This document shows, one piece after another, positions 3,022-21,854 of a stretch of 28,040 nt of DNA. Every line of letters begins with the position of its first letter. Position 1 is the first letter of the stretch. The stretch lies in assembly GCA_008932965.1 (NCBI GenBank), contig WBXG01000019.1, positions 1 through 28,040 of the forward strand, read 5' to 3'. Below the pieces are notes generated by a model. That model was not told where the DNA came from and did no database searches. It saw only the letters and a list, made by a program, of their open reading frames with translations. The translations under genes and the position numbers were made by a program. This DNA is from Verrucomicrobiota bacterium. GTDB taxonomy: Bacteria; Verrucomicrobiota; Verrucomicrobiia; Chthoniobacterales; UBA6821.

Positions 3022-3058
3022 CGAAGACAAATAACAAGTGAAGAGTAGAGTCAAATTA

Positions 3059-4782: not shown

Positions 4783-4847
4783 AGGAACTTTCTTAAAAGA
4801 AAATGAGTTTAGACAAAAAAGCAAAAATGAAAAAGAGGTATTTATAT

Positions 4848-4923: not shown

Positions 4924-5040
4924 TTATTGGGTCAGCGCTGGTCCACGCAGCAGCATCAGCCAAAAAACAATTGCAGTGAGAACAATCGCAAAAAGAAAAA
5001 TACTAAGACCGATGAAATAACGTCTGCTTTTTGGCATCAT
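4924..5040 (-). CDS. Untracked 38-aa single-pass membrane ORF (MMPKSRRYFIGLSIFLFAIVLTAIVFWLMLLRGPALTQ)
   Basis: I translated the minus strand by hand. ATG at 5040-5038 overlaps the ctaB TGA (5039-5037) as ATGA. The basic N-terminus followed by a 21-residue hydrophobic helix gives positive-inside topology. The stop is TAA at 4926-4924. It sits between ctaB and ctaE. Confidence 0.5.
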   Translation of the reverse strand: MMPKSRRYFIGLSIFLFAIVLTAIVFWLMLLRGPALTQ

Positions 5041-5951: not shown

Positions 5952-6013
5952 TATCAAAATTGTTAGCAGTAATGATAGCCAACTCACCAATTAGAACAGC
6001 CTTATTTTTTTAT

Positions 6014-7051
6014 TTATCCTTCTTTTGCTGAAAAACTTTCGTTTTTTTGGCTTGAAATAAATAATCGAAACGTAAAAAGAAAGGCCGTTCCAAGAATCAA
6101 TGCTCCCAAAGCCATATGGGTTGTTGCCACATCAGCTGCCTTATTCGACCAAATCGTCCAAGCTCCGAGAACTACTTGGCATAAAAGCAATAGCCCCCAT
6201 AAGGTTGACCAACGACGCACCCAATGTCCTTTTGGAAAAAGTTCATAACTTCGAATAATTAAAAGGAGAACAATTCCAAAGAGTAGAATAGCTCCACCCC
6301 GATGAATCATTTGAAGAGAGATTTGCGTTGTTGTTGTCGGCATCATTCCTTGTGCAAGACGATCTTCATTGATGGTAGCAAGCGCCTCGTTTGAAAGTGA
6401 AGGAAGCAAGTGCCCATAGGCTGTGGGAAAATCAGGGATCGAGAGGCCGAGATGGCTATGGCGCATGGTAGCAGCAATAATTAATTGAAAATAAATTAAA
6501 ATGATTCCTGCAAGTGCAAGCCATTGGAGACGAGCTGCAGCACTGTCACCAAACCATGTCCCTTCAGAAAAACGACGACTTGTCATTGCGGAGAAAATTA
6601 CAAGAAGACCAAAGAAGGATTGAGCGAGGATTGCATGAAAGATCCCGATTTCATCCTTATAAAGAGTGACGCGAAGTCCCCCAAGGACTCCTTGTAAAAT
6701 AACGGCAAAGACTAGAACTGCGGCTACGTAACGGAGAGTAGAACGTTTTTCTAAAAAAAAAGTGAGCGCTGCCAAGATGACTGTGATCAAACCAATCCCT
6801 GATGCTAATAACCGGTGACTATGTTCATAAAAAACTCCTCCCACCCAGCGTGAAAGAGGAAAAAGAAACATATTGTATCCATAAGTTGTCGGCCAATCAG
6901 GAACTGACATTCCTACCCCTTTTGAAGTCACAAGGCCGCCACTGCAGAGAAGGATAAAGGTGAGGAAGGTGGTGGCAACTGCTAAAACATGTAGAAAAGA
7001 AGGCGGAGAAAAGTGAAAACGAGTAACTGCTGGGGAGGACGGTGTTAACAT
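6014..7051 (-). CDS. ctaA: Haem A synthase (COX15/CtaA family)
   Basis: 345-aa protein with about 8 TM helices and paired His-containing helices (EHSHRLLASG, FHAILAQ, IHRGGAILLF, THMALGALIL). ATG at 7051. It is adjacent to ctaB. Confidence 0.8.
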   Translation of the reverse strand: MLTPSSPAVTRFHFSPPSFLHVLAVATTFLTFILLCSGGLVTSKGVGMSVPDWPTTYGYNMFLFPLSRWVGGVFYEHSHRLLASGIGLITVILAALTFFLEKRSTLRYVAAVLVFAVILQGVLGGLRVTLYKDEIGIFHAILAQSFFGLLVIFSAMTSRRFSEGTWFGDSAAARLQWLALAGIILIYFQLIIAATMRHSHLGLSIPDFPTAYGHLLPSLSNEALATINEDRLAQGMMPTTTTQISLQMIHRGGAILLFGIVLLLIIRSYELFPKGHWVRRWSTLWGLLLLCQVVLGAWTIWSNKAADVATTHMALGALILGTAFLFTFRLFISSQKNESFSAKEG

Positions 7052-7151: not shown

Positions 7152-8936
7152 CTAGTGGATTTCAAGCTGAATATTTGTAGGGGCTTTTTCGTTTTGAGGA
7201 AGATAGTCCTTGTCCATTCCCGGAACACTATATTCGTAGGGACCGTTATAAACAATAGGAGTTATTGGAAAATTACCATGCCCAGGAGGGGAGGAAATAG
7301 TCCATTCTAGCGTTGTGGCAAGCCAAGGATTATCGGGAGCTTGAGGACCTTTGAAGATGCTGTAAAAAAGATTCACAAAAAAGACGAGTGTTGAAAGCCC
7401 TAGACCAAAAGCACCGATCGTACAAATGACATTGAGCGGCTGCAACTGGCGAAGATGTTCATAGACCGTAGGATCGGCAATACGACGCATCATTCCTCCA
7501 AGACCTAGATTGTGCATGGGGAAAAAGGTGAGGTTAAAAAACAGAAACGTTGCAATAAAATGAATCATTCCAAGTGTTGGATTCATCATGCGACTGAACA
7601 TTTTTGGAAACCAAAAATAGATTCCTGAAAAAATTGCGAAAAGACTTCCACCAAAGAGTACATAATGAAAGTGAGCTACAATAAAATAGGTATGGTGCAC
7701 AAAAAGATCGACCGGAGTTGAAGCCATAAAAATACCACTTAATCCTCCAATCACAAACATCGATACAAAGGCCAACGTAAAACACATTGGAACTGTGTAT
7801 TCAATCGATCCTTTCCAAACGGTTCCTAGCCAATTGAAGGTTTTGATTCCTGAAGGAACAGCAATCACCATTGTTGAGACAGCAAAAGTGGCGCTCAAAG
7901 TAAGATTCATTCCACTCACAAACATATGATGCCCCCACACAATAAATCCAAGAAGCCCAATAGAAGCCATTGCATAGACCATTGCCTTGTAGCCAAAAAC
8001 AGGCTTACGTGCAAAGACAGGCATGATTTCAGAAACCAGACCCATCGCAGGTAATATCATGATATAAACTTCCGGGTGTCCAAAGAACCAGAAAAGATGC
8101 TGCCATAGTAGGGGCTGTCCTCCCCCTGCTGGTTTAAAAAAACTTGTTCCAAAATTCAGATCGAAAAAGAGCATTGCTGCAGCTGCGGAGAGTACAGGGA
8201 CTGCAAAAATTAATAAAATAGAGGTGATTAAAAGAGACCAAACTGTGAGAGGAAGACGAAACATCGTCATTCCGGGAGCCCTCATAGTAATGATCGTCGT
8301 AATGTAGTTTGTAGCTCCAGCAATGGAGGCAAGTCCATTAATGAAAATTGCGATTCCCCAAAGGCTTTGACCCACTTGCGTTTGATTATAAATTGCAACG
8401 GCACTTAGTGGAGCATAAGCAGTCCAACCTGTTCCCGGAGCACCACCTGGTGCAAAGAAAGCAGCAAGGATAAAAAAACCAGAAATCACATAGAGCCAAT
8501 AACTCACTTCATTGAGCAAAGGAAAGGCCATATCTCCAGCCCCAATTTTTAATGGGATTAGATAGTTTCCAAATGCACCAATAAGCAGCGGCATGACGAC
8601 GAAAAAAACCATGATCGTCGCATGCATGGTCACAAGCATGTTGTAACCACCAGGAATAATCGTTCCATCATCGGACGCCAGAGTTGATGGAAGAAAACGA
8701 CCAATGAGAGGCACTGGATGATTTGGAAAACCAAGCTGGTATCGAACAGCCATAGCTAGGGCTCCACCTAGTAAGAAAAATAAAAAAGCTGTCCACAAAT
8801 ACTGAAGTCCAATCATCTTGTGATCATAGGACCAAAGATAATGCATGATTCCTTTTTTTTCGGAATGATGGTGAGTTTCTAAGGCAATGGGATGATCAAG
8901 GGCTAGGTCAATATCAGGGGCAACAGAAACATTCAT
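7152..8936 (-). CDS. ctaD: Cytochrome c oxidase subunit I, A1-type haem-copper oxidase with all ligands present
   Basis: Motifs MHATIMVFFVVMP (haem a His), WFFGHPEVYIMILP (CuB His, Glu, cross-link Tyr), VWGHHMFVSG (CuB HH) and VAHFHYVLFGG (haem a3 / haem a His). ATG at 8936. Confidence 0.95.
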   Translation of the reverse strand: MNVSVAPDIDLALDHPIALETHHHSEKKGIMHYLWSYDHKMIGLQYLWTAFLFFLLGGALAMAVRYQLGFPNHPVPLIGRFLPSTLASDDGTIIPGGYNMLVTMHATIMVFFVVMPLLIGAFGNYLIPLKIGAGDMAFPLLNEVSYWLYVISGFFILAAFFAPGGAPGTGWTAYAPLSAVAIYNQTQVGQSLWGIAIFINGLASIAGATNYITTIITMRAPGMTMFRLPLTVWSLLITSILLIFAVPVLSAAAAMLFFDLNFGTSFFKPAGGGQPLLWQHLFWFFGHPEVYIMILPAMGLVSEIMPVFARKPVFGYKAMVYAMASIGLLGFIVWGHHMFVSGMNLTLSATFAVSTMVIAVPSGIKTFNWLGTVWKGSIEYTVPMCFTLAFVSMFVIGGLSGIFMASTPVDLFVHHTYFIVAHFHYVLFGGSLFAIFSGIYFWFPKMFSRMMNPTLGMIHFIATFLFFNLTFFPMHNLGLGGMMRRIADPTVYEHLRQLQPLNVICTIGAFGLGLSTLVFFVNLFYSIFKGPQAPDNPWLATTLEWTISSPPGHGNFPITPIVYNGPYEYSVPGMDKDYLPQNEKAPTNIQLEIH

Positions 8937-8973: not shown

Positions 8974-9942
8974 TTATTGTGAGATAATAGAACTATTTCC
9001 AATAACAATATTGGGTTTCTTCACTTTCTCTGCATACCAGGTGTCATATTCCTTTTGGCTTACAACACGAATCGGAGCCTTCATATTATAGTGTCCCTTT
9101 CCGCAGAGCTGGCTGCATGCAAGCTGAAAATTCCCCATACGCAATGTCCTAAACCAAACCCATGCGATCGTTCTTCCAGGGACGGCATCTTGATATAAAC
9201 GAAACTCTGGAACATAAAAGGAGTGAATCACATCGCGTGATCGCAGAAAAATGTGAACAGGCTTACCAACAGGAATCACAAGTTCTGTAGTACTGAAATC
9301 TTCTTTTGCATGGGGGTCAGTAGGATCGATTCCAAATTTATTATCGAGGCTTATTTTTCGCACATCAGAACGCGCAAGAACTCCACTGGTTCCAGGATAG
9401 CGCATGTCCCAAGCAAATTGATAGCCCACAATTTCTACATTCAGAGCATCTGCTGGTGCGGGACGATGGATATTGTACCAGACTCGATTTCCATAAATAG
9501 CAAGTCCAAGGAAAATCAATGTAGGTAGCGTCGTCCAAATAATTTCTAATTTATTATTTCCATGACTGTAGTGTGCCTTCACACCCGGACGACGACGGTA
9601 TTTGACGAGATAATAAATATAAACAACTTGAACGGCTACAAAAACGGAGGTAGTTAACCAGAAAATAAAATTCAAAATTCCATCGGTTGCAAGACCATTG
9701 ACGGTGGCATTTTGAGGAGTCCAATAAATGTTACCAACACGTGATTCAGCCATCAGAGACATAGGCATGACCATAAGCGCCAATAAGCCTCTCCAGAATA
9801 GAGAAAATGGAGATCTAGAGCTAATATCACCGTGATCAGCTTTTATTTGTTGTTTACAGTTCGCAGAAGAACTAAGATTAGTATTGCACCATCGATGGAT
9901 GGTCATGTGCAGGTGATCGAGAATCTTAGAGGGTAATGACAT
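8974..9942 (-). CDS. ctaC: Cytochrome c oxidase subunit II (CuA) without a fused cytochrome c domain
   Basis: CuA site HSFYVPEF ... CSQLCGKGHYNM and two TM helices. There is no CxxCH anywhere in the ORF. About 45 aa precede the signal-like segment (LLALMVMPMSLMA), so the true start may be the ATG at 9906 rather than 9942. Confidence 0.9.
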   Translation of the reverse strand: MSLPSKILDHLHMTIHRWCNTNLSSSANCKQQIKADHGDISSRSPFSLFWRGLLALMVMPMSLMAESRVGNIYWTPQNATVNGLATDGILNFIFWLTTSVFVAVQVVYIYYLVKYRRRPGVKAHYSHGNNKLEIIWTTLPTLIFLGLAIYGNRVWYNIHRPAPADALNVEIVGYQFAWDMRYPGTSGVLARSDVRKISLDNKFGIDPTDPHAKEDFSTTELVIPVGKPVHIFLRSRDVIHSFYVPEFRLYQDAVPGRTIAWVWFRTLRMGNFQLACSQLCGKGHYNMKAPIRVVSQKEYDTWYAEKVKKPNIVIGNSSIISQ

Positions 9943-9993: not shown

Positions 9994-10704
9994 TTATTTG
10001 GCTGGTGGGGTTGGGTTGGTAGCAGCTCCAGAATAAAGCTCTCGAGGAATTGCTTGAAGTTCTGACATAGTCCAAGCTTCGGTGCGTGGAGGGGTGCTAG
10101 CACGTATTTTAGCAACAAATTCTGGAGAGATTGGAGATCCATTATTTCCCCATTCAGAGCGAACATAGGTCAATACCCCCGCAATTTGCTGATCAGTAAG
10201 TTGATTCCAGGGAGCCATAGCATTGTTGTAGGGCATATTTTTAACGATAATTGGACCCTGCAGACCGTAGAGAATGTTTTTAACAAGATGATTATCTCCA
10301 TGCCATCCTTGGGATAGGGCCCATTCGCTTCCCACTAGTGGAGGGTATTGTCCGGCAATACCAAGTCCTGTTTCTTGATGACAAACCACACAATTTTGAG
10401 CAAAAACTTTTTTTCCAACAACTCTTAGATCAATCGGAGCTGCTGCCCTGGAACCCCCTCCACCACTCCAGGCAACAAGTTCTGCATTATAAACATTGGA
10501 CTTAAAACCGCCGCTGTAGTAGGCGAGATAGAGGCCTGCCCAAAAAAAGAGAACCATCGAAATAGCGATTAACCAGAGCGGAATAGGTCGAAAAAATCCA
10601 CCATATTTTTCTGGATTGACAGAGAGAGGAGGACGATTGATTTCCACAAGATCTCTCTCGGGATTCAAGGCATCACTGGAATTTAGGTCATTTAATGGAT
10701 TCAC
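9994..10704 (-). CDS. Membrane-anchored monohaem cytochrome c (CcoP-like N-terminal anchor plus one class I haem domain)
   Basis: GTG start. The TM anchor IPLWLIAISMVLFFWAGLYLAYY resembles the CcoP N-terminus. It has a single CVVCHQ, with PPLVGSEW and MAPW downstream. Confidence 0.75.
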   Translation of the reverse strand: MNPLNDLNSSDALNPERDLVEINRPPLSVNPEKYGGFFRPIPLWLIAISMVLFFWAGLYLAYYSGGFKSNVYNAELVAWSGGGGSRAAAPIDLRVVGKKVFAQNCVVCHQETGLGIAGQYPPLVGSEWALSQGWHGDNHLVKNILYGLQGPIIVKNMPYNNAMAPWNQLTDQQIAGVLTYVRSEWGNNGSPISPEFVAKIRASTPPRTEAWTMSELQAIPRELYSGAATNPTPPAK

Positions 10705-10726: not shown

Positions 10727-11356
10727 TTAAGGAGCCGAGGGAGTTTCCGCAGAAACCTCAGGTAAGGTATAATCATGTTTGAGAGAAAGCAAATAGGCTA
10801 CTAAATCCTGGGCATCCTTCGTTGGAACAACCTCGTACCCTGGTGGAGGAGCATGTGGACCAGTGAGAGGAATTGCTTGTGCAGAGAGCTCTCCTTGGAT
10901 TTTTTGCATGTGAAAAAGGTAACGGTAGGAAGGCATGATCGATCCAGGGGTGACTTGATCTGGTTCATACAAATGATGATAGTACCAAATAGGATCGGTG
11001 AGACGACTTCCCACATTACTTAAATCAGGGCCCATGCGTCTCTTTCCAAGAAATGCAGTTTGATCGCGTAAATAATCAAGTGCTACTGAGGGACGCGTGC
11101 CCCATTTTCGATCAATATCGGAATGCGTCACATCTAACTGACGAATTTGCTGAGTATGACAGGTCATGCATCCACTAGCTGCATAAACACGAGCTCCTAA
11201 AATGGCTTGCCCACTATAATAGGGAGGTAGGATACCATCACTACCGGCAACCGATTTGAAATGTCCTAATTCCAGATAAGAGTAGACGACAACTCCGAGC
11301 CAGCTGGAAAAAAAGAGAAGTATAATAATTAAAAATAGAGATCTTAATCGATTCAT
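10727..11356 (-). CDS. ccoO: CcoO/FixO-like monohaem cytochrome c (cbb3 oxidase subunit II family)
   Basis: N-terminal TM helix, then GARVYAASGCMTCHTQQIR ... WGTRP ... LGKRRMGPDLSNVGSR ... HLYEPDQVTPGSIMPSY. This is collinear with the canonical CcoO signature (CxxCHSQxIR, GPDLxxVG, MPSY Met ligand). Confidence 0.8.
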   Translation of the reverse strand: MNRLRSLFLIIILLFFSSWLGVVVYSYLELGHFKSVAGSDGILPPYYSGQAILGARVYAASGCMTCHTQQIRQLDVTHSDIDRKWGTRPSVALDYLRDQTAFLGKRRMGPDLSNVGSRLTDPIWYYHHLYEPDQVTPGSIMPSYRYLFHMQKIQGELSAQAIPLTGPHAPPPGYEVVPTKDAQDLVAYLLSLKHDYTLPEVSAETPSAP

Positions 11357-11371
11357 AAGATGAAAAATAAT

Positions 11372-12823
11372 CTAGCGAGGCATGGGCAATTTTTCTTCGA
11401 TCATCTCCCAACGCATAGTCACAAGAAGACGCATGAAACAGAAGAAGCCAAGAAGGAGGAGGAACCAGGAAAGCGTAACAAGAACATTCCAAGGTAATGT
11501 GTAGGAGAGAATGTTAGTAAAAGTAATGACGGGGTCATTGAATGCAACTCCTTCAATCATTCCACCAAGAACCATAGAAGAAACCATGAGGCTTATTCCA
11601 ACAACGGATAGCCAAAAATGGAACTGAATCAGCTTGCTTGAGGACCAAGAAATCCCTGTCAACCTAGGAATAAAATAATAAAGCCCTCCGAAAAGTGTCA
11701 TTCCAAAAAATCCCAAGAAGAAGAGTAGGAAGGTCCCGCTTAAATAATCTGTAAAATTCAAAATGGCATTGAAACAAGGAAAACTACTTACTAAGGAGAG
11801 CACAGTTGCGATCACATATGAAATGATTCCTGCTGCAACAAAACGAAGTGCCGGGCTTTGATGAAGAATCAACTTTTCTGATTCTTGAAACATCCAATAA
11901 AAATTAATGACGACAGCAATCATTGGTAGCACGAGCATGATGTTAGTAACGACTCCAGCACTCATCATCCATGCAGGAATAGCCCCCCCAATAAGAGAGC
12001 TTAAGCCATTCCATCCAGAAAAGAGAAGTAACGAAAAAAATCCAAAGAGAGCCAAATAATAACTGTAAATTTTAACACCAGTAATTTTAGGAATGAGGTA
12101 GTAGATCGTTCCAAGAGCTATTGGAGTCAACCAAAACTGCATGAGAGAGCCTGCATACCAGCATTGAATGGGCCCTTGAGCGGAGCCTTGAATTTTTCCC
12201 CAAGTCAACATCAGATTAGCTGTTCCATAAATCCATGGAAAAGAGCAGAGAGCGGTGAGTAAGTACCACTCGGAAACATAGAGAGCTCGCTCTTTTCTCT
12301 CCTGAGTCAAGAGGAGTACCCAAAGGCCCATCAATAGAAAAGAGACGAAGAGTAAGAACGAAGCCCAATTAGGATATTCTAAAAAAATCACTGATGTTCC
12401 ATATCCAGCAAGTACTGCTAAGGAACCTAGGAAGAGGGCACTATTCCAGAGATGTGCTGCTGCAGTGAGTATTCTTATGTGAGAAAGAGGAGTGGCACTA
12501 AGTCGAGCCATTAGCCAAAGGATAAGAGCAAAACCAAGCGGAATCGCCCATCCATAGATAAAGAGATCATAGGCAACCGGAAAAAGACGCCCGTAGGTTA
12601 GGAAGCTGATTCCATCGAGAAAAGAAGGAAAGACGAGTTTAACAGCACAGATCGATATTAGGAACAATGCTAAGCTAAAGCTAAAAAAAGAGGATCTCAT
12701 CAAAAAGAGTATCGGGACACTCAGGGAGCGATCAATTTCAAGCCTCTTTGAAGCGTCCAATGGTAATGGCTCGCTGAGATAGGAGGCAGGCTCTATTTTT
12801 GAAAGTGTTGTTGCGTTATTCAT
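11372..12823 (-). CDS. CcoN-like (cbb3 subunit I homologue) membrane protein lacking all haem and CuB ligands; probably non-catalytic
   Basis: 483-aa protein with about 12 TM helices. YGRLFPVAYD compares with FGRLRPLHTN. QCWYAGSLMQFWLT..YYLIPK..IYSY compares with QWWYGHNAVGFFLT..YYFVPK..VYSY. WNGLSSLIGGAIPAW compares with WAGPHHLHYTALPDW. FTDYLSGTFLL compares with YTDWTIGHVHAG. Reference motifs are recalled from Pseudomonas stutzeri CcoN. Confidence 0.8.
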   Translation of the reverse strand: MNNATTLSKIEPASYLSEPLPLDASKRLEIDRSLSVPILFLMRSSFFSFSLALFLISICAVKLVFPSFLDGISFLTYGRLFPVAYDLFIYGWAIPLGFALILWLMARLSATPLSHIRILTAAAHLWNSALFLGSLAVLAGYGTSVIFLEYPNWASFLLFVSFLLMGLWVLLLTQERKERALYVSEWYLLTALCSFPWIYGTANLMLTWGKIQGSAQGPIQCWYAGSLMQFWLTPIALGTIYYLIPKITGVKIYSYYLALFGFFSLLLFSGWNGLSSLIGGAIPAWMMSAGVVTNIMLVLPMIAVVINFYWMFQESEKLILHQSPALRFVAAGIISYVIATVLSLVSSFPCFNAILNFTDYLSGTFLLFFLGFFGMTLFGGLYYFIPRLTGISWSSSKLIQFHFWLSVVGISLMVSSMVLGGMIEGVAFNDPVITFTNILSYTLPWNVLVTLSWFLLLLGFFCFMRLLVTMRWEMIEEKLPMPR

Positions 12824-12909: not shown

Positions 12910-13356
12910 CTAGGAATTGTTTTTTGGAGGTGGCACTGGTGTCGGTGTTGGCATTCCTGCAGCAACCGGAACAAGATCAATGGGAGCTATCGGATATGTT
13001 GCATGAGGTCTACGAGCGGTATCGTTGAGCCTCTTTATTTCCATCTCCATAGCTCGCTCTAAAGGAATATGGACGACTCCTTGATTCTGATCTGCCCAAC
13101 CATAGGTATTTAAAAGCTCCTCATTTGCTTTGTTTAAGGCAGCTAGATTTTTTACCCTTAGTAGAGCCCTCTCTTCATCATCGGTCATGGGCTCGGGATT
13201 CCATCGCATCATTACAATGATGGCTGCTACAAATAGGATGAGTAAGCAAGCAGCCATCCATAAACGACCCCATGGAAAAGGGCCTGAGGCACGAGAAGAT
13301 AGTGAGCTATCCTCGGCTAAGGAGTCTTGATGGATATGATCAGTACGTTGCTTCAT
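12910..13356 (-). CDS. Single-pass membrane protein at the end of the ACIII genes (possible ActG-type accessory subunit)
   Basis: 148-aa ORF with ATG at 13356. It has one TM helix (LWMAACLLILFVAAIIVMM), a conserved-looking GVVHIPLERAMEMEI segment and a Pro-rich tail. The assignment rests on position only. Confidence 0.45.
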   Translation of the reverse strand: MKQRTDHIHQDSLAEDSSLSSRASGPFPWGRLWMAACLLILFVAAIIVMMRWNPEPMTDDEERALLRVKNLAALNKANEELLNTYGWADQNQGVVHIPLERAMEMEIKRLNDTARRPHATYPIAPIDLVPVAAGMPTPTPVPPPKNNS

Positions 13357-13430: not shown

Positions 13431-14699
13431 TCATACAACAATATGAATAGAATCTTTGAGACGCGGATCGCGTAATGGCCACAGAGGAACATCTCCAAGA
13501 CGTTTTAAGAAAACGGCAGCAAGGGCTGTTCCTATAGCAATCAAGGAAAGAAGATCAAGGAAGCTGGGATGAAACCCTGCAGGGTGTATCATGGGAAGAA
13601 CGACAATATAGATGTCTAGAAGGTGCATGAGTAAAATCCAGCAAGCGATACCACAAAGATAGGCAGGACGTTTTTTAGGATTACGAAAGAGTAGCAAGAT
13701 GAATGGAACTAAAAAGTGCCCCAAAACAAGAATGATATTAAGAATGCACCAACTCTCGGTATTGCGACGTAAAAAATAGGTAGTCTCTTCAGGAATGTTG
13801 GCATACCAAATAAGCATATACTGGTCAAAGCCGATATAAGCCCAAAAGACAGTAAAGGCAGTCATGAGTTGACCTATTAATGCATAGTGACGTTCGGAAA
13901 CAATCCCCTCTAAATAACCGACAGAGCGAAGTGCTGTTATAATAAGAAGAATCACACAAAGAGAGCTTAATGCTGATCCTGCAAAAATGTAGACTCCCCA
14001 CATTGTTGAGACCCATTTGAAATCAAGACCCATGAGCCAATCGACAGCAGCAAATGTTAAACAGACCCCGAAGAAAGGAAGGCTTGCAAAGGTGATTTCA
14101 CGAGCCATCACGGTATATTTAGGATCCCCATCGTTATCTTGAGCTACAGAGAGCTTGCGCAGCCAAAGAGAGGCGAGACTAAAAAACAGAAAGTAAAAGG
14201 CTGCTCTCATCCAAAAAAATGGAAGATTGAGATAAGCCGCTTTTTCTAGTAAAGCATGACTACTTCCATGAGGAATCACCATCCACTTCCAGAGTAAGGG
14301 AGCAACAAAAATCAAAGGGATAAAAAAAAGAGAAAGCACAGGAAAAAGGGTTGCTACGTTTTCCATTTGACGACGTACCCCAACACTCCACTCCACGTCA
14401 ATTCCATGGTGCACTAAAATCCAAAAAAGACTCCCGATACAAATTGTTAAAAAAAAGGTAAAGGCGAAAAGCCACGAGAAAGCAAATTGCTTAGGATTGT
14501 TCATTCCAAGAGCGATGCACCCTAAAAGGGAGATAATAGAGATGGAAACTAATCCAAAAAATCGTCCTCCAACATGTTTATAATCAAAAAAACAATTACT
14601 CAGGGGCACCCCACTGTGTGCCGTGCTTTCTTGGGACTTGGACGCAGGGCCATCGTGCGTTATAGGCCGTTTGTCGTTATTATCAGAGTGTGAATTCAT
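13431..14699 (-). CDS. actF: ACIII subunit ActF (NrfD/PsrC-like polytopic membrane subunit)
   Basis: 422-aa protein with about 10 TM helices and an NrfD-like architecture. It holds the canonical position after actE. ATG at 14699. Confidence 0.8.
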   Translation of the reverse strand: MNSHSDNNDKRPITHDGPASKSQESTAHSGVPLSNCFFDYKHVGGRFFGLVSISIISLLGCIALGMNNPKQFAFSWLFAFTFFLTICIGSLFWILVHHGIDVEWSVGVRRQMENVATLFPVLSLFFIPLIFVAPLLWKWMVIPHGSSHALLEKAAYLNLPFFWMRAAFYFLFFSLASLWLRKLSVAQDNDGDPKYTVMAREITFASLPFFGVCLTFAAVDWLMGLDFKWVSTMWGVYIFAGSALSSLCVILLIITALRSVGYLEGIVSERHYALIGQLMTAFTVFWAYIGFDQYMLIWYANIPEETTYFLRRNTESWCILNIILVLGHFLVPFILLLFRNPKKRPAYLCGIACWILLMHLLDIYIVVLPMIHPAGFHPSFLDLLSLIAIGTALAAVFLKRLGDVPLWPLRDPRLKDSIHIVV

Positions 14700-14777
14700 C
14701 AGGAAAAAATTGTATTAATGGGTATTTTTAAAAATAGATCAGCCTTATTAGAACTTTGTTTTTTTTCATCCTCCGCA

Positions 14778-15500
14778 TTACTTGGATTGAGCTGGTAATG
14801 GAAAGGAGTCAAGAGAGAATTGTTTTTGTGCAGCTACATCTTGTGGAAGATCCTTGATGGTGGCGTGCTGAGAAAGTTGCAATGCTCTTAAGTAACAAAT
14901 AATAGCCCAGCGATCTGGTACTTGAATCGTAGAGCCATAACCCATCATTGAATTTTTTCCCCAGGTAATGGTATTAAAAATTTCTCCATCGGCCATATCA
15001 CGAATCCGCTGCTGTTGCTGATTAGCAATACCGTTGAGGCCATATTTAGAAGTAATCCCATTTCCCATACCACTAGCACCATGACATACAGCACAGTTAA
15101 TATTATAGCGTTCTTGCCCACGCTTCATAACAGCAGCAGTTACTTCAAATGGAATTCCACTCCCCCATTGATTGCCCATACGACCAGTAGCGACATAGTC
15201 AGGAGAAGCAGAAAACTGAATATTCTGATACGGACCAAGATCCCCCATCGCATCTTGCGAGGAAGAAACATTTCCTTGAGGTGGTGCATACCCAACAGGA
15301 ACTGTTCCTTTCACATGGTGACGTGCAGAACGATCATCTGAATAAAAATCACTTTCTGACTGTGCCTTATACTTTGCTTGACGCACCATATCGGGAAACA
15401 ACTCTATAGGAGGTCGCTTTGACTTCCAACCACGCAAACCGGTAATTGAAACCAGTAATACTACGAGAAGGGTAAATCCAATAAAAAAATAGCGGAGCAT
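14778..15500 (-). CDS. actE: ACIII subunit ActE (membrane-anchored monohaem cytochrome c)
   Basis: N-terminal TM helix (LRYFFIGFTLLVVLLVSITGL) and a single CAVCHG. The tracked start at 15575 is TTG, and the ATG at 15500 lies directly before the TM helix. Confidence 0.8.
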   Translation of the reverse strand: MLRYFFIGFTLLVVLLVSITGLRGWKSKRPPIELFPDMVRQAKYKAQSESDFYSDDRSARHHVKGTVPVGYAPPQGNVSSSQDAMGDLGPYQNIQFSASPDYVATGRMGNQWGSGIPFEVTAAVMKRGQERYNINCAVCHGASGMGNGITSKYGLNGIANQQQQRIRDMADGEIFNTITWGKNSMMGYGSTIQVPDRWAIICYLRALQLSQHATIKDLPQDVAAQKQFSLDSFPLPAQSK

Positions 15501-15654
15501 GGCTAAATAAAGTAACGGGTAAGAGCTAACGGATAATAGATAAGTGAATTTTTTAGTGATAACTCTCCTAAACAATCCATTGCGCTAGGAGTTAGATATT
15601 TTGTTTTTTCAAAAAGTTGCATCATCGTATTTTATCAAGGTTGGAGTTTTGCTT

Positions 15655-16272
15655 TCACTCGTTCCCGGAATCCTCATGAATGGCAGTGAGATGATTTCCT
15701 CCCAGTGAGTTTAAAAAAGCGCTTGTTGCTTCAAATGAAAATTTCTGATCACTGGACTCAATTGCAATGAAAAATTTATCTTCTGTTACTTTATTGAAGC
15801 GATCCCAATTGAAATTAGGATGATTCCATCGTGGCAACCCATTGAGTGCAAGCATTCCAAAAGTTGCAGTCAATGCAGCAAACAAAATAGTGAGCTCAAA
15901 CATAATGGGAAAGAAAGCAGGTATGGTGAATAGATTGGTCGGTTTTCCAGCAACGACGAGTGGATAGAGAAAGGAGGAGGTTCCAAATTCCAGTGCAAGA
16001 GCCAACGTAAATCCTGTTAATCCCCCAATAAAAACTAAAGCACTCAGCCACGACTTTTGAAGTCCCATGGCTTCATCCATCCCATGAATGGGAAAAGGAG
16101 AATAGGTATCCCATTTTTTATAACCAGCATCACGCACTTTTTCTGCCGCATGATAAAGATCCCGGGCGCTTTCAAACTCTATACCAAGTCCAAAGAGGGG
16201 TGCAGTTGCAGGACCAGCAGTAGTAATGGTAGGGGCACTCGTATTCATCGTAACTTTAGTGATCTTCTCCAT
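15655..16272 (-). CDS. actD: ACIII subunit ActD (DUF3341-type)
   Basis: [45 protein letters not shown] followed by two TM helices, as in ActD. The start is ambiguous: TTG at 16311, ATG at 16272 (17-nt overlap with actC) or ATG at 16248. Confidence 0.8.
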
Positions 16273-17683
16273 AGTGAGGATTGGCTTCCGGAAGGACGGC
16301 CTTGACTTCAAACATACAAATCATCGGCAAAAAGCGAACAAAGAGAAGAAAGAGTGTTGTGAAAATTCCAAAGGTTCCAATGAATGTAAAGATATCAACC
16401 CATGTTGGGTGAAACATTCCCCATGAGGAGGGAAGAAAATCTCGAGCTAGTGTTGTTGCGATAATCACAAAGCGCTCGAACCACATTCCAGCATTCACAA
16501 ACATACAGATGATAAAAACGACGAAAATATTTTTACGACACCATGGAAACCAAAAGACTTGCGGTGAAATCACATTACAAAACATCATGCTCCAGTAGGC
16601 CCACCAATAGGGTCCAAAAGCACGATACCAAAAGGCAGCACGTTCATAAGGATTAGCTCCATACCAGGCCATAAAGAGCTCCATGAGGTAGGCGTAACCG
16701 ACAATGGATCCTGTGAGTAAAATAACTTTGCACATTTTATCAATATGCATCGGAGTGATCATATCGTGCAATTGAGGATAAATGGCCCGTGCAGGAAGCA
16801 TGATGGTAAGAACCATTGCAAAACCACCGAAAATCGCTCCCGCTACAAAATAAGGAGGAAAAATAGTGGCATGCCAGCCAGGAATGACTGAGGTTGCAAA
16901 GTCAAAGGAGACGACACTATGCACCGAGAGCACCAGAGGAGTCGAGAGACCTGCAAGAAGAAGATAGGCCATTTCGTAATGACGCCATTGACGGTTTCCT
17001 CCTCTCCAACCAAGAGCGAGAATTCCATAAAAGAATTTTTTTATCTTCGTAGTACAACGATCCCGAATCGTTGCTAGGTCAGGAATGAGCCCAGTATACC
17101 AAAAGAGAATGGAAACGGTAAAATAGGTAGAGACGGCAAAGACATCCCAAAGAAGAGGGCTTCTAAAATTTTGCCAAATTGCATTGGAATTAGGGACTGG
17201 TGCTAAAAAATAGACTTTCCAAACACGACCGACGTGGAAAAGAGGATAGATTCCGGCACAAACAACTGCAAAGAGGGTCATTGCTTCAGCAGCACGGTTG
17301 ATGGAAGTACGCCACTTTTGGCGTGTCAAAAAAAGAATTGCTGAAATTAATGTTCCTGCATGACCGATACCGATCCAGAAAACAAAATTGGTAATATCCC
17401 AGGCCCAAGCTACCGGGCTATTGTTTCCCCAAACACCAACACCTGTGGAGACAAGATAGCAGATAAGGAGTGGGGTGAGTAACGCAATGGGCGAAGTAAT
17501 GGCAATGGAGATATACCACCAGAGAGGTGTTTTGGATTCTACAATGGTGCTAACATAACTGCTAATCCAGCCCATGGTGCGCTTGTTGAGCACGAGGGGG
17601 GGGCGCTTGATACCATCTCTCTGTGCTAACAGGTGTGGTTGGTCAGGTGACTCTTGCGAGTTATGTTCAGTGTGTTGGTCCAT
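16256..17683 (-). CDS. actC: ACIII subunit ActC (NrfD/PsrC-like quinol-interacting membrane subunit)
   Basis: About 475-aa polytopic NrfD-like protein immediately after actB. ATG at 17683, one codon inside the tracked TTG. Confidence 0.85.
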
Positions 17684-17763
17684 CAAAAAAGTTGATTATT
17701 ATCCATTACAGGTAAGAGCTATCTTTACTAAAAAAAATTTATATTTTCTTTTCATGGTAGAAA

Positions 17764-20700
17764 TCACTTGGAATTTTCCATGATCTGAGGACTAACTACT
17801 GAAGTGGAGGCTTGTGGAGAAACCACCCCGTGTTGATCAAAATGGGTAGGTCCTACATCGGCATGTTCCCCAGCAGCTTCATGATGTACAGTGCCATTGG
17901 CTAAACCGACTTTATCTGCATCTGGCATTGATGCATTGGGGTTTTTGATACGAGCCAAATAAGTCACACGAGGACGTGCATTGAGATATTTTAGCATTGT
18001 ATAATCACGAGGGCTTTCTTTGCGTTGAGAAACAGTACTCTTTGCATCAGCAATATTTCCAAAGACAATTGACTCTGAAGGGCATGCTTGTTGACAGGCC
18101 GTTTTAAAAGGAGCGATTGGAGTTTTATGAGAATCACTAGCCCCAGCTTGAACCAAGCGTCCAATCTTTGCCTCTTCAATACGCTGCAAGCAGAAAGTAC
18201 ATTTTTCCATTACCCCTCGCATACGGACTGTGACATTAGGATTTTTTGACATCTTCAGGCTATCGGCCATTCCCTTAGGGGCAAGTGGGCCATAGTAAAG
18301 CTGATCAAGTGGGCGTAAATTATAATCAAAGAAATTAAAACGGCGTACTTTCCATGGACAGTTATTGGCACAGTAACGAGTCCCGATACAACGATTATAA
18401 GCCATGAGGTTAAGCCCATCTTCGCTATGAACAGTCGCATTAACAGGGCAGACTGTCTCACAAGGAGCATTGTCACAATGCTGACACATGATTGCCTGCG
18501 GCAACATCTCTGGATTTTTATCCGAACCATCGGGACTTGCAAACCAACGATCAATTCGAATCCAAGCCATATCACGGCCCCGACGCACTTGGTCTTTACC
18601 AACTACCGGGACATTATTTTCAGATTGGCATGCAAGCAAACAAGCATTGCAACCAATACAAGTATTGAGATCCACAGACATTCCCCACTGCTCCTGAGCA
18701 GTAAAAGGAGGACGGGTGTAGAGACCAATATTAGGAGGAATGTGACCATCCATTCCCATGGTCTGTGCAAACTTAGGATCCTCTTGGTAGCGTTCTATAG
18801 TTCCTTCACGTACAAGATCACGACCTTCCATGTTGTGATGTTCTTGTGTTTGTGCAAAAACATATTTTTTACCAGTTAATGGTTTGATGGAAACAGAGCT
18901 GGTGTAGCGAGGCGAAGCGGCAGTACGCAAAGGATAAACATTAAAGCCGACGTTACTGACAATATGAGAAATATTTTTACGTCCATAGCCTAGAGAAGCA
19001 CTCACCGAGCCATTAGCATGACCAGGGAGTGTTAAGATGGCAATATCGATAGAGTGTTGTCCATCACTGAGACGCACAAAATCGCCGTCGCTAAGATGAA
19101 GGCGCTTCGCATCTGCAGGACTCATAAGTAAGGCATTATCCCATGTCAACTTGGTGACAAAGTCAGGTGTCTCCTGCAACCACGCGTTGCCACTATAACG
19201 ACCATCATAAACGCTGGAGCTTGGGAGAAAGACACATTCAAAATCATCTTTTGAAAATGGCTGTTGAGGCTTTAATGTAGCAATCAGCCTTTGTACTGCA
19301 GGATCATTCCAGGAGGGTTGACTCACAGGCCATGCGCTATCTGACAAGAAACCTTGATGCAGATAGTTGTTCCAAGTGCCATCAGAATGATCCTGAGAAA
19401 AGGAATTAAAAGTTTCACGGATCAGCGCAGGCCCCTCAGCTCGCGGCTCACCGAGCAGGGCATGGAGGATTTCTAATTCAGAATAACCATTCCAGAGTGG
19501 TAAAATCATTGGCTGGACTGCACACAGCGTTCCATCAAGACTTCTCACGTCACCCCATGCCTCGAGGTAATGTGCTGCAGGCACATGCCACCGAGAAACT
19601 TTGGATGTCTCTTCTTCACATAACGAAAGATGAAGCGTTTCAGGAACTGATGCGATGAGATCGGTCCAGTTCTTTTCTGAGGATGCAGTATAAACTGGAT
19701 TTACCTGAAACAAAAGAAGCTTCTTAATAGAACCTGCTTCAATAGCCTCTGCAAGATCCTTTAAAGAAGACGTTGGTTTTATTCCAGTTGCTGCCACTTC
19801 AAGGGTCGTTCCAAAATTTCCTAAGGCAGCATTCATTCCAAGCACCATTAATTGAATGCCGATAGACTGCTCTCCCCCAGCAAGAACAAGGCTCTTCCCT
19901 TGATTTGCCAGCAAATCCTCCACAACTGCTGAGACCCATTTTTGAGATTCGCTGGAGAGTTCGATCGTGGGATTATTATGAATCCAGGTGGTGGCTAGTA
20001 ATTTTAGGGAGGCATTGTTGGTCTTGGTGCCAACAAGAAGAGACATTGCTGCTGTGAAAGCCCCCAATTGACGGGCTTGAAGCCTGAAACGATGATCAGC
20101 TAAGCCACCCGTAAGGCTGTAATGATTTTCTACAGCATAGAGACGATTCATCTGCTGGTCGGGATTGCGCCGGGCATAGAATCCATTGGCTAATCCAAAA
20201 CCAGCTACAGAAGGATTTAAAAAATCAGCATCCAGAGCAACAATAACATCTGCTTTCTTAAAGTGGTAGATCGGCCGTACCCCTTCTCCTAAAGCAGTAT
20301 CGCACGCCTGTTCGAAAAAGTGAGTAGATAGGGGTTCATACTCAACCCATGTTATTTTTGGAAATTCTTTTAATAAAGCATCACGCAAACGATCACGCGT
20401 TGGAGATCCTATACGCTCGACCACTATAGCCATTCCTTCACCTCCATTGCTCAAGGCTCCTTCACGAAGATGGGCAAGATATGAATCAAGCTTTGAGGAG
20501 GTTGCCTCTTTTCCATCCAAGGTAATGGCTTTGGAGCGATAGGGATTATAGAGGTCTAACAGCGAAGCCTGGGCAAAGGCATCGGTAGAGCCATTACTCA
20601 TGGGGTGGAGTGGATTCCCTTCTATTTTCGTCGGACGCCCATCAGAAGTCGTTACAATGAGTGGAATAGCACCTGCTGGAGCAGGCATCGTGGTTGCATA

Positions 20701-21000
20701 GTAAAGAAATTTTCCAGGAATTGTCCATTCTGCAGAGCGGGTAAATGGTACCAAATAAGCCTCAGGACGCCGGCATGCTGAAAGACCAATACCGGCTAAA
20801 GCAGCAGAAGCCCCCGTTAATCGAAGAAAGTCACGACGCGAGAGCCCTTGTGTTTCATGTTTCTCTCCAGCACGATCAGCACCAGCTGGAAACTCACGTT
20901 GTAACGATTCGTTAAAAATAGCACTATTTTCACGCTCTTGGGAATTCCTCCAAAGAGTCGGCTGAACGTCGCGTGCTGGATGTTGAAAAATACGTTTCAC
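17764..21000 (-). CDS. actB: ACIII subunit ActB (fused molybdopterin-oxidoreductase-like B1 domain plus 4-cluster ferredoxin-like B2 domain), TAT-exported
   Basis: 1078-aa protein with a GTG start. Twin-arginine signal SRRDFLRLTGASAALAGIGL. FeS motifs CIGCNACLLACQSENN, CQHCDNAPCETVCP, CIGTRYCANNCPWKVRRFN and CTFCLQRI. Confidence 0.92.
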   Translation of the reverse strand: MKRIFQHPARDVQPTLWRNSQERENSAIFNESLQREFPAGADRAGEKHETQGLSRRDFLRLTGASAALAGIGLSACRRPEAYLVPFTRSAEWTIPGKFLYYATTMPAPAGAIPLIVTTSDGRPTKIEGNPLHPMSNGSTDAFAQASLLDLYNPYRSKAITLDGKEATSSKLDSYLAHLREGALSNGGEGMAIVVERIGSPTRDRLRDALLKEFPKITWVEYEPLSTHFFEQACDTALGEGVRPIYHFKKADVIVALDADFLNPSVAGFGLANGFYARRNPDQQMNRLYAVENHYSLTGGLADHRFRLQARQLGAFTAAMSLLVGTKTNNASLKLLATTWIHNNPTIELSSESQKWVSAVVEDLLANQGKSLVLAGGEQSIGIQLMVLGMNAALGNFGTTLEVAATGIKPTSSLKDLAEAIEAGSIKKLLLFQVNPVYTASSEKNWTDLIASVPETLHLSLCEEETSKVSRWHVPAAHYLEAWGDVRSLDGTLCAVQPMILPLWNGYSELEILHALLGEPRAEGPALIRETFNSFSQDHSDGTWNNYLHQGFLSDSAWPVSQPSWNDPAVQRLIATLKPQQPFSKDDFECVFLPSSSVYDGRYSGNAWLQETPDFVTKLTWDNALLMSPADAKRLHLSDGDFVRLSDGQHSIDIAILTLPGHANGSVSASLGYGRKNISHIVSNVGFNVYPLRTAASPRYTSSVSIKPLTGKKYVFAQTQEHHNMEGRDLVREGTIERYQEDPKFAQTMGMDGHIPPNIGLYTRPPFTAQEQWGMSVDLNTCIGCNACLLACQSENNVPVVGKDQVRRGRDMAWIRIDRWFASPDGSDKNPEMLPQAIMCQHCDNAPCETVCPVNATVHSEDGLNLMAYNRCIGTRYCANNCPWKVRRFNFFDYNLRPLDQLYYGPLAPKGMADSLKMSKNPNVTVRMRGVMEKCTFCLQRIEEAKIGRLVQAGASDSHKTPIAPFKTACQQACPSESIVFGNIADAKSTVSQRKESPRDYTMLKYLNARPRVTYLARIKNPNASMPDADKVGLANGTVHHEAAGEHADVGPTHFDQHGVVSPQASTSVVSPQIMENSK

Positions 21001-21194
21001 TTTAAAAACAAGAGTACAATTTTAGTAAGAATGATCAGGCGTTGCAATTTAAGAACCGCTGTTGAGACTCTCTAAAAGGGATGAAGAGCGAGAAGTGCAG
21101 AGGTAAAATAACTCAGTTCTAGTGATAGTACGCAATCGTGAGGGAACTGGAGCAGCACAGATTATCACTGCATTTGTAGAGTATAATAAAGGGT

Positions 21195-21854
21195 TCATCG
21201 GTGGCATCCTCCACAAGTAACGGGTGGATTCACATTCCACTCCTGTTTGAATTTCATTCCCATCTCAAGTTGTGCGTCAATAGACTTAGGATGCCACTCC
21301 ATATTATAAATTTCGCTTGGTGGTCGAAGAAAATTTTCTGGAGCACGATGGCATTCCAAACACCAGGCCATACTCAGGGGCTTGGCCTCATAGACCACAG
21401 ACATTTCATTAATAGCTCCATGGCAGCTGTAGCAACTCACACCACGGTTCACATGGACAGCATGATTGAAATAGGCATAGTCAGGAACCTTATGAATGCG
21501 AACCCATGGAATTGGTAAACCCGTTTTCCAACTCTCTTGTACCGGGGCTAATCGGGGGCTTTCCCACTTGATTTTCCCTTGACCATGGCAATTAATGCAG
21601 GTTTGCGTGTTAGGAATATTAGAATGGCTCGCCACCTCCACAAAGCTATGACAGTATCGACAATCCATTCCGAGCTGCTGGACATGAATCGCATGAGAAA
21701 AAGGAACCGGCTGGTCTGGCTGATAACCAACACGAGTGTACTTTGGGGTGAAATAATACCAGATTCCGCCGACTAGCCCAGCACCGATGAGCGTCAAGCA
21801 GACGATCAATTTGAACGGCAATAAATTGGACCAGCGTGGAAAAAAATTCGACAT
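21195..21854 (-). CDS. actA: ACIII subunit ActA (membrane-anchored pentahaem cytochrome c)
   Basis: N-terminal TM helix and five CxxCH motifs: CRYCH, CINCH, CYSCH, CLECH, CGGCH. ATG at 21854. Confidence 0.9.
   Translation of the reverse strand: MSNFFPRWSNLLPFKLIVCLTLIGAGLVGGIWYYFTPKYTRVGYQPDQPVPFSHAIHVQQLGMDCRYCHSFVEVASHSNIPNTQTCINCHGQGKIKWESPRLAPVQESWKTGLPIPWVRIHKVPDYAYFNHAVHVNRGVSCYSCHGAINEMSVVYEAKPLSMAWCLECHRAPENFLRPPSEIYNMEWHPKSIDAQLEMGMKFKQEWNVNPPVTCGGCHR

Follow-up and report, generated by a model that had tools for sequence, protein, structure and literature searches.

A CcoN homologue without haem or copper ligands, encoded between alternative complex III and aa3 oxidase genes in Verrucomicrobiota

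What is left of an oxidase subunit when every residue that binds its haems and copper has been replaced, and why would such a protein be kept? The question is raised by ccoN', a gene in a 28,040 nt stretch of contig WBXG01000019.1 from a Verrucomicrobiota bacterium (assembly GCA_008932965.1). This whole stretch is referred to below as the window, with coordinates given on the forward strand. A sequence-only reading of the window had described the ccoN' product as a collinear homologue of CcoN (subunit I of cbb3-type oxidases) that lacks the six invariant histidines and the cross-link tyrosine of the active protein, and that is nevertheless folded and under selection. Here, we examine this proposal using homology searches, structure prediction and comparative genomics. 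All sequences compared come from metagenome-assembled genomes (MAGs) and metagenomes; related loci carry L-numbers, and homologous proteins carry P-numbers. We use N' for the ligand-less CcoN homologue, N'OP for N' together with the CcoO-like and CcoP-like proteins, and seven-letter codes (HHYHHHH in canonical CcoN) for the seven ligand columns in sequence order. The gene of interest is as follows:

11372..12823, minus strand: ccoN', an ATG-to-stop open reading frame (ORF) for a ligand-less CcoN homologue of 483 aa with 12 predicted transmembrane helices

The ccoN' product is a full-length CcoN homologue in which all seven catalytic residues are replaced. Its residues 41–452 match positions 6–433 of the 436-position Pfam COX1 profile (PF00115; E=4.4e-40) with a score of 138.3 bits, above the gathering threshold of 34.8. 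The TIGR00780 ccoN model also matches (E=6e-40), but at 137.5 bits the score lies under the curated equivalog cutoff of 583.15. The top PDB matches obtained with phmmer are cbb3 CcoN chains (8smr_E, 9g6b_A and 3mk7_A; E about 1e-26 to 1e-25), and together these matches bear out the proposed collinearity. Six histidines bind the cofactors of CcoN (two for haem b, one for haem b3 and three for CuB), and every canonical CcoN in our MAFFT alignments reads HHYHHHH. None of the six is present in ccoN'. The replacements are (i) A84 for a haem b histidine (FPVAYD aligned to RPLHTN), (ii) G225 for a CuB histidine (CWYAGS aligned to WWYGHN), (iii) S269 for the cross-link tyrosine of helix 7 and S275/S276 for the CuB His-His pair (FSGWNGLSSLI aligned to LYIWAGPHHLH), and (iv) T364 for the haem b3 histidine and L366 for a haem b histidine (LSGTFLL aligned to IGHVHAG). 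The protein contains four histidines in total (115, 124, 321 and 402), of which only H402 is conserved, and to the same degree as in intact CcoN. Neither the residue-by-residue nor the MAFFT alignments place a conserved histidine of ccoN' in a ligand column.

The remainder of the protein retains the character of CcoN. The scaffold motifs listed by the sequence-only reading (YYLIPK..IYSY, IPAW, FTDY, YYFIPRL and HFWLS) were all found. An AlphaFold2 (AF2) model of ccoN', computed with 59 ligand-less homologues, contains 12 long helices (pLDDT 90.3, pTM 0.90). When compared with solved CcoN structures in Foldseek, the model gives template-modelling (TM) scores of 0.84–0.89 and a root-mean-square deviation (rmsd) of ~2.7 Å over ~467 columns (for 3mk7_A, TM 0.86/0.89 and rmsd 2.7), and solved CcoN outranks nitric oxide reductases (NOR) and A/B-type oxidases as a structural match. 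The predicted fold of ccoN' is still that of a 12-helix haem-copper-oxidase (HCO) subunit.

Is this protein an oddity of one contig? A protein search returned 89 homologues; about 60 of them are ligand-less, with 28–91% identity to ccoN', all of similar length and with intact ORFs. A scan for related loci (one genome per species, with an alignment of 25 closer sequences as the query) found relatives in 186 genomes, almost all of them Verrucomicrobiota: Chthoniobacterales, Terrimicrobiaceae and a few others. When a profile of ligand-less proteins was searched against a representative library of 1.84 billion proteins, 874 matches were obtained at E<=1e-30; the best 148 new 50%-identity cluster representatives consist of 137 ligand-less, three partial and four intact proteins, plus four that are gapped at a ligand column. 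Intact N' ORFs of constant length occur in more than 50 independent assemblies. A sequencing or assembly artefact is excluded, because ligand-less orthologues are present in dozens of independent assemblies.

The same set of sequences carries the mark of purifying selection. Between ccoN' and its closest relative in the genome scan (L003, 90% identity), dN/dS is 0.073 (dS 0.75), and ten pairs of ligand-less N' give values of 0.043–0.146, i.e., far below 1. These values resemble those of intact CcoN from the same operon type (0.030–0.119 in seven of eight pairs, dS being saturated in the eighth) and those of ActB from the adjoining alternative complex III (ACIII) genes (0.046–0.205). No orthologue examined has a frameshift or an internal stop. 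At the same time, N' changes faster than its neighbours, with 67% identity to L001 as opposed to 91–93% for CoxA and ActC. Ligand-less N' is thus a large and diverse family, fast-evolving yet constrained, and the initial view of a folded protein under selection is upheld. We consider it very probable that ccoN' encodes a selected, cofactor-free pseudo-oxidase subunit.

What exactly has been lost was addressed by comparing 54 non-redundant ligand-less proteins with 27 intact verrucomicrobial CcoN. Besides the seven ligands, the ligand-less set has lost R81, R449, the WWYGHN context, H308/H309, H356, and positions 233, 258 and 336. Positions 233, 258, 336, 81 and 449 are 100% conserved in the intact proteins, and 20–61% in the ligand-less ones. 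R81 (beside a haem b histidine) and R449 (in transmembrane helix 12) are the arginines that bind the haem propionates in HCOs. Positions 233, 258 and 336, which by offset we take to be T215, S240 and Y317 of Pseudomonas stutzeri, presumably belong to the K-analogue proton channel. Three glycines conserved in intact CcoN are bulky residues in ccoN' (G229 to Q, G368 to F and G453 to W). What both groups have kept is chiefly a scaffold of Gly, Pro and Trp residues, together with R79, R107, E149, R176, N307 and H402. Conservation that is new to the ligand-less set is almost absent (only L63, Y77, L206 and G371, none of them obviously functional). Finally, the ligand columns are hypervariable among ligand-less homologues, including those of the window's own clade (e.g., A / G,S,A / S,A,G,T,E,N), and hence no alternative ligand set exists. 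As judged from these alignments, redox and proton machinery were purely lost and the fold was kept; this is not a pattern of neofunctionalisation.

A second, independent line of evidence comes from a neighbouring gene. Directly upstream of ccoN, intact loci carry an ORF of 60–80 aa that matches Pfam FixS (PF03597, "cytochrome oxidase maturation protein cbb3-type") with E-values of 3e-6 to 4e-5, above the gathering score. All loci, translated in six frames, were searched with a hidden Markov model (HMM) built from seven of these FixS-like ORFs. This ORF, ccoS, is present in every intact genome locus with upstream sequence, while at the locus level the HMM detects no ccoS/FixS-like ORF in any ligand-less locus or anywhere in the window. 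The pattern is repeated in a second sample, a ccoO-anchored metagenome scan of 80 loci. Combined, ccoS occurs in 66/66 intact and 0/52 ligand-less loci (Fisher p=9e-35, shared ancestry ignored). The loss of ccoS independently supports the view that ligand-less N' is truly cofactor-free. According to PMC8267372, Rhodobacter capsulatus without CcoS still contains a detectable but inactive CcoNOQP complex (Koch 2000, Kulajta 2006), which provides an experimental precedent for a stable apo-CcoN with cytochrome c partners.

Given the missing ligands and tyrosine, the score under the equivalog cutoff, the altered channel residues and the lack of ccoS, ccoN' does not classify, at the level of sequence, as a functional cbb3 oxidase subunit. 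The initial reading had argued from the ligands that the protein cannot reduce O2; the loss of the propionate arginines, proton-channel residues and ccoS points the same way, and ccoN' should indeed be unable to do so.

Some homologues depart from the general pattern of variable ligand columns. In one large ligand-less subclade (L038, L040, L041, L044, L046, L048, L055, L062, L067, L068, L076 and P0029–P0039), the columns read A-G-G-(D/E)-R-K-Q, which puts an acid, an arginine and a lysine inside the membrane at the old CuB/haem positions. This set may be a salt-bridge plug, or else a lineage-specific new site. The ActC and ActD proteins of this subclade are unusually divergent too; they share 57% and 43% identity with those of the window, compared with 81% and 68% for Terrimicrobiaceae. 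Other homologues retain partial sets: HSYNHHH (L034), HQAQHHH (L120), HHCSHHH (L033) and HHAQYHH (P0106) keep the three haem histidines without the CuB histidines and/or the tyrosine, and AHAHDNF (L140/L143/L160) has two histidines left, one CuB histidine and one of the CuB His-His pair. Those partial forms that were examined at the locus level (L033, L034, L120 and L140/L143/L160) have lost ccoS; HRYHHHH (L017, L026) and HHSHHHH (L023) loci have retained it. Partial sets may represent intermediates or haem-only variants.

Did the ligands disappear once, or repeatedly? The 80 genome loci comprise 39 with a fully intact HHYHHHH CcoN, about 35 that are ligand-less, and a few partial ones. The verrucomicrobial operon (actABCDEFG-ccoN-ccoO-cytc-coxBA-ctaAB-coxC-sco) is found with intact or ligand-less CcoN, ccoN' is nested phylogenetically among the ACIII-linked verrucomicrobial CcoN, and the ligand-less loci show many different replacement patterns. 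In a neighbour-joining (NJ) tree of all CcoN, nearly all ligand-less proteins fall into one long-branched clade. Three results conflict with this clade. Firstly, in a tree of concatenated ActABCDEF, the ligand-less lineages are scattered among intact ones. Secondly, by pairwise identity, ligand-less CcoN are as close or closer to intact CcoN than to other ligand-less groups; L049, for example, shares 55% identity with the intact L035 and at most 53% with any ligand-less protein. Thirdly, when ligand-less proteins are placed one at a time on the tree of intact CcoN, their attachment points differ, and are congruent with the ACIII tree: L049/69 join L029/31/32/35 (42/50 bootstraps), L077/79/80 join L054/57/59/60/74/78 (43/50), and the window clade is the sister of a 26-member Terrimicrobiaceae-type clade (38/50). 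A single origin is rejected on these grounds, and the ligand-less NJ clade is most likely a product of long-branch attraction. The placements provide good support for at least three independent ligand losses, and the number is probably five or six; gene conversion, or the transfer of a dead allele, survives as a residual alternative to independent losses.

To ask what a cofactor-free CcoN might do, we turn to its neighbours. The genes of the operon all lie on the minus strand, with short gaps, in the order actA-B-C-D-E-F, 148-aa protein, ccoN', ccoO-like, CcoP-like, coxB, coxA, ctaA, ctaB, coxC, sco1, DUF420:

13431..21854, minus strand: ACIII genes actA–actF (Pfam ActD E=2e-59, NrfD, multihaem c and Cytochrome_CBB3 domains), listed singly in the next six lines
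21195-21854, minus strand: actA, with five CXXCH motifs
17764-21000, minus strand: actB, QrcC/QrcB-like (NCBIfam), with a twin-arginine translocation (TAT) signal
16256-17686, minus strand: actC
15655-16311, minus strand: actD
14778-15575, minus strand: actE, with one CXXCH motif
13431-14699, minus strand: actF, no Pfam match, with homologues at the actF position of related operons
12910..13356, minus strand: ActG-like protein of 148 aa with a single transmembrane helix, between actF and ccoN'
10727..11356, minus strand: ccoO-like mono-haem cytochrome c, 209 aa (FixO E=4.7e-22, NF011055 E=6e-24)
9994..10704, minus strand: CcoP-like membrane-anchored mono-haem cytochrome c, 236 aa, CVVCH at 105-109 (Pfam Cytochrom_C / Cytochrome_CBB3; TIGR00782 ccoP E=3.6e-7)
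8974-9942, minus strand: coxB, with the CuA motif CSQLCGKGHYNM and no fused haem c (Pfam COX2 / COX2_TM)
7152-8936, minus strand: coxA, with WFFGHPEVY, GHHMF and HFHY all present (TIGR02891 CtaD_CoxA, 652 bits, E=5e-196)
6014-7051, minus strand: ctaA (Pfam COX15-CtaA)
5037-5990, minus strand: ctaB (Pfam UbiA)
4162-4824, minus strand: coxC (Pfam COX3)
3458-4219, minus strand: sco1 (Pfam SCO1-SenC)
2590-3054, minus strand: DUF420 gene (Pfam DUF420)

The ccoN' gene therefore has a complete ACIII on one side and a complete aa3 oxidase on the other. Gaps of 15 nt to the ccoO-like gene downstream and of 86 nt to the gene upstream agree with the tight spacing reported by the sequence-only reading, which gave no strand; translated on the plus strand, the coordinates of ccoN' yield numerous stop codons. 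The ACIII genes follow the known order (pentahaem ActA, the Mo-less/FeS fusion ActB, NrfD-like ActC and ActF, ActD, and monohaem ActE). Both the actABCDEF(G)-N'-O-c-coxBA order and the ctaA-ctaB-coxC-sco1-DUF420 order recur in related loci. Scans of the operon for promoters (counts at chance level) and terminators (27 compared with 18.8 +/- 4.3 expected, a modest excess) were uninformative on operon boundaries. 

The 148-aa protein has no Pfam or NCBIfam match. A profile of 12 homologues matches the PDB chain 8k9e_G ("ActG") of a solved ACIII weakly (E=0.0057), with a convincing motif, YG[WY]..G.vH[IL]P[IL].RAM.L, aligned; the AF2 model of the 148-aa protein is of low confidence (pLDDT 64.5), below what a fold search requires. 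Homologues occupy the same position in both intact and ligand-less operons. Beyond the cox/sco/DUF420 genes, the window encodes a DUF6572 protein of 158 aa with Cys-rich N- and C-termini (2110-2586, minus strand) and a 627-aa protein with multiple transmembrane helices and a C-terminal universal-stress-protein domain (212-2095, minus strand). In the related locus L045, the ActF match (7568-8925) comes in two pieces (7568-8257 and 8359-8925), which suggests a frameshift or an assembly error.

The two cytochromes encoded immediately after ccoN' are retained wherever N' is found. The CcoO-like protein has an N-terminal transmembrane anchor, a CMTCH motif at residues 63-67 and a methionine ligand, Met141, in the motif MPSY. 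All genome loci (75/75) and all metagenome loci (80/80) keep its CXXCH motif. A comparison of CcoO-like proteins from ligand-less and intact operons finds 65 conserved positions in common (including C63, C66, H67 and M141) and eight lost. Among those loci of the ccoO-anchored metagenome scan with enough upstream DNA, none has a ccoO without N or N' directly upstream. The CcoP-like CXXCH motif is likewise kept (70/70 loci). Here, 52 conserved positions are common to both operon types and seven are lost, six of them in a short N-terminal cytoplasmic stretch: at residues 23–39, the motif H..RE...P..G.E, which is 94–97% conserved in the partners of intact CcoN, is gone, while the haem domain is unchanged. 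The N-terminal cytoplasmic region of CcoP presumably contributes to the proton-entry site, and we mention this as a lead only.

The sequence-only reading had asked whether ligand-less CcoN forms a conserved clade that always lies beside ACIII or aa3 genes. The link to ACIII is near-universal. The single clade gives way to recurrent losses, and the link to aa3 is strong without being absolute: an aa3 coxA gene lies downstream in 33/39 ligand-less compared with 13/43 intact loci (p=6e-7, shared ancestry ignored), many intact-type loci ending in an orphan coxB or in nothing. 

Several variants of the downstream region were observed. In L011 (12940-13848; also L015, L017, L026, L029 and L031), intact ccoS-ccoN-ccoO-cyt c genes are followed by an orphan coxB with an intact CuA motif, CSQLCGTGHYNM. 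These orphan-coxB operons have no coxA in the next ~8 kb, and the next gene in L011 encodes an HNH endonuclease. Such an orphan coxB may be the mirror image of ccoN', i.e., a case in which aa3 was lost and the CuA subunit kept. Two ACIII-ccoS-ccoNO-cyt c-coxB loci, one HHYHHHH and one HRYHHHH, are present in the same MAG (L012 and L026 of CAZRIL01), reflecting a genuine duplication or else a bin of mixed strains. In L061, L064, L070, L072 and L085, coxA (42–45% identity to that of the window) comes first, then coxC/cox4, with coxB several kb further on; this arrangement is seen with both intact and ligand-less CcoN. In L084 (the P0064 context), unrelated genes lie downstream in place of aa3.

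The location of ccoN', between ACIII genes and an intact oxidase, makes a scaffold for electron-carrying cytochromes its most likely role. As the best overall explanation, which on balance we favour, we propose that a dead CcoN serves as the scaffold of a two-haem c module that probably acts as a relay from ACIII to aa3. In the ancestral verrucomicrobial operon, the ACIII genes would have preceded those of a true cbb3 oxidase and, in many lineages, also those of aa3. Several lineages would then have independently lost cbb3 catalysis (ccoS, all ligands and the proton channel). The CcoN polypeptide would have been kept because CcoO, and with it the CcoP-like cytochrome, needs a membrane scaffold, and on this proposal the same need would account for the purifying selection on N'. 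The resulting N'OP module, which would carry two c haems but have no site for O2 reduction, would pass electrons from the ActA/ActE haems of ACIII, where menaquinol is oxidized, to the CuA site of aa3, probably inside a supercomplex. The parts of this proposal differ in strength. A role for ccoN' as a scaffold for c haems is likely; that the N'OP module specifically wires ACIII to aa3 is a closer call, with the balance at best even. More tentative still, and in our view somewhat improbable, is the strongest version: that ligand-less CcoN is an obligatory adaptor joining an ACIII / N'OP / aa3 supercomplex, that the CcoO and CcoP-like haems are the sole path from ActA/ActE to CuA, and that this adaptor evolved repeatedly by inactivation of the cbb3 half of an ancestral ACIII-cbb3-aa3 assembly.

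A number of points weigh against the relay proposal. Four ligand-less loci (L079, L058, L065 and L084) have ACIII upstream and no cox genes downstream, and another (L083, in the P0074 context) has no ACIII genes in the 1 kb upstream on its 4.8-kb contig; because of these exceptions, an ACIII-to-aa3 relay is not the whole story everywhere. In Flavobacterium johnsoniae, ACIII reduces aa3 without such a module, and ActE is dispensable (PMC8552683). Homology, complete ligand loss, selection, recurrence, the co-loss of ccoS, and the retention of haem c sites and synteny are shown directly; the absence of cofactors in vivo, the physical assembly of N', O and P and the relay role are inferred. In addition, the trees are NJ trees with 50 bootstraps, dN/dS was estimated pairwise (NG86) with dS of up to ~1.5 or more, and neither contingency test (ccoS, coxA) accounts for shared ancestry.

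Of the competing explanations, the one that survives best sees in N'OP a generic terminal c-cytochrome module, or a structural subunit of ACIII, with no specific link to aa3; N' would then be kept for the assembly or stability of ACIII, or for handing electrons on to any acceptor at all, be it a soluble cytochrome or an oxidase whose genes lie elsewhere. It gains from the fact that adjacency to ACIII is more universal than adjacency to aa3, from the four loci with ACIII and no cox genes, and from the intact versions, which also directly follow actFG. We nevertheless regard it as unlikely, given the excess of downstream coxA in ligand-less over intact loci and the one N'OP cluster, on a short contig, that lacks ACIII in the 1 kb upstream.

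Decidedly less probable is that N' has acquired a new, metal-free activity, such as that of a channel (for ions, protons or a gas), a sensor, or a subunit that binds quinone or has a regulatory task. Strong purifying selection would fit such an activity, as would the conserved charged D/E-R-K-Q residues in the old CuB/haem columns of one large subclade and the retention of polar R79, R107, E149, R176, N307 and H402. These polar residues, however, are just as conserved in intact CcoN, the positions analogous to the K channel have gone, and almost nothing is newly conserved across the ligand-less lineages. Moreover, the recurrent origins carry different replacement residues, which argues for loss rather than a common gain.

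We give very little credence to the idea that N' is still a redox enzyme, with unusual haem or metal ligands (Met, Lys, Tyr, Cys or carboxylates). The protein does contain 19 Met, 21 Tyr and five Cys, and the partial forms of L034 and L120 show that three haem ligands can persist without those of CuB. Against this stand the lack of conservation in all seven columns among ligand-less proteins, the missing haem-propionate arginines, the absence of the cofactor-insertion gene ccoS from ligand-less loci, and the bulky replacements of G229, G368 and G453. Lastly, a functionless decaying pseudogene or assembly artefact, which the rapid change of N' and the disappearance of all its catalytic residues might bring to mind, is effectively refuted by the intact, constant-length ORFs in independent assemblies, the low dN/dS, the high-confidence predicted fold, the 137 ligand-less cluster representatives of less than 50% mutual identity, and the fact that the ccoO-anchored scan never found ccoO without N or N'.

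How does a scaffolding N' compare with known systems? With CcoN of cbb3 oxidase (P. stutzeri, 3MK7 chain A), ccoN' shares full-length collinearity, 12 transmembrane helices, and ccoO and CcoP-like genes downstream; it differs in lacking the six histidines, the tyrosine, the propionate arginines, the channel residues and an adjacent ccoS. The idea of a dead enzyme fold retained as a structural subunit has a familiar parallel in Core1/Core2 of mitochondrial bc1, inactive homologues of the mitochondrial processing peptidase (MPP) protease that are kept as structural subunits; fold and complex are unrelated, and the analogy is conceptual only. The closest functional analogue of the predicted ccoN' product is the CcoNOQP complex of the R. 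capsulatus ccoS mutant, as described in PMC8267372. That complex is a laboratory mutant with intact ligands and no known function, whereas ccoN' is natural, fixed and selected, and has lost its ligands.

Two natural systems resemble the window in layout. In the ACIII-aa3 supercomplex of F. johnsoniae (Sun et al. 2018, Nature 557:123; cited in PMC8498564 and PMC8552683), the act genes adjoin the aa3 genes, as they do in the window, and electrons pass directly from the c haems of ACIII to the oxidase, with no soluble carrier. No CcoN/CcoO/CcoP-like genes lie between act and cox in F. johnsoniae, whereas three are intercalated in the window; a further difference is that the CoxB of the window has no haem c domain. 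The second system, found in Opitutaceae and verrucomicrobial methanotrophs, consists of ACIII-cbb3 clusters (Refojo et al. 2010 via PMC8498564; PMC6688271), which have the same act-ccoNO-cyt c layout, and of which L082 and L011–L037 are intact examples in our sample. There, CcoN has kept HHYHHHH and ccoS, while the lineage of the window has lost both and has aa3 genes appended.

Reviews of respiration in Verrucomicrobiota treat ACIII-adjacent ccoNO simply as a cbb3 oxidase (PMC8498564, PMC6688271). The initial reading was aware of no described function for such a protein, and in the searchable literature we too found no description of ligand-less CcoN or HCO homologues; subscription papers lie outside this body of text, and a prior mention in them is possible. 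A preprint on Ferrigenium, considered as a prior description, concerns eNOR instead. Public annotation (NCBI, JGI, KEGG-style) labels the ligand-less proteins "cbb3-type cytochrome c oxidase subunit I", and pipelines give ccoN' this name because its PF00115 score exceeds the gathering threshold.

If correct, N' would be the first natural and widespread haem-copper-oxidase subunit I without a haem or copper site. It would mean that an HCO fold can persist in a role other than catalysis, and that evolution has arrived at this state recurrently. It also offers a concrete hypothesis, open to test, on the wiring of ACIII to aa3 oxidases without a fused cytochrome c, and bears on the existence of ACIII-cbb3 supercomplexes. 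The perfect co-variation of ccoS with the ligands offers a simple genomic marker that separates functional from dead cbb3, and adds comparative-genomic support to the proposal that CcoS acts in cofactor insertion. Finally, the family exposes a systematic annotation error, in which dead CcoN is labelled as a working oxidase. Because of this mislabelling, the high-affinity microaerobic respiration inferred for abundant soil and freshwater Chthoniobacterales and Terrimicrobiaceae MAGs can be false; if the adaptor reading is true, the error would extend to a large share of the genes called "cbb3 oxidase" in Verrucomicrobiota MAGs and to the microaerobic lifestyles derived from these calls.

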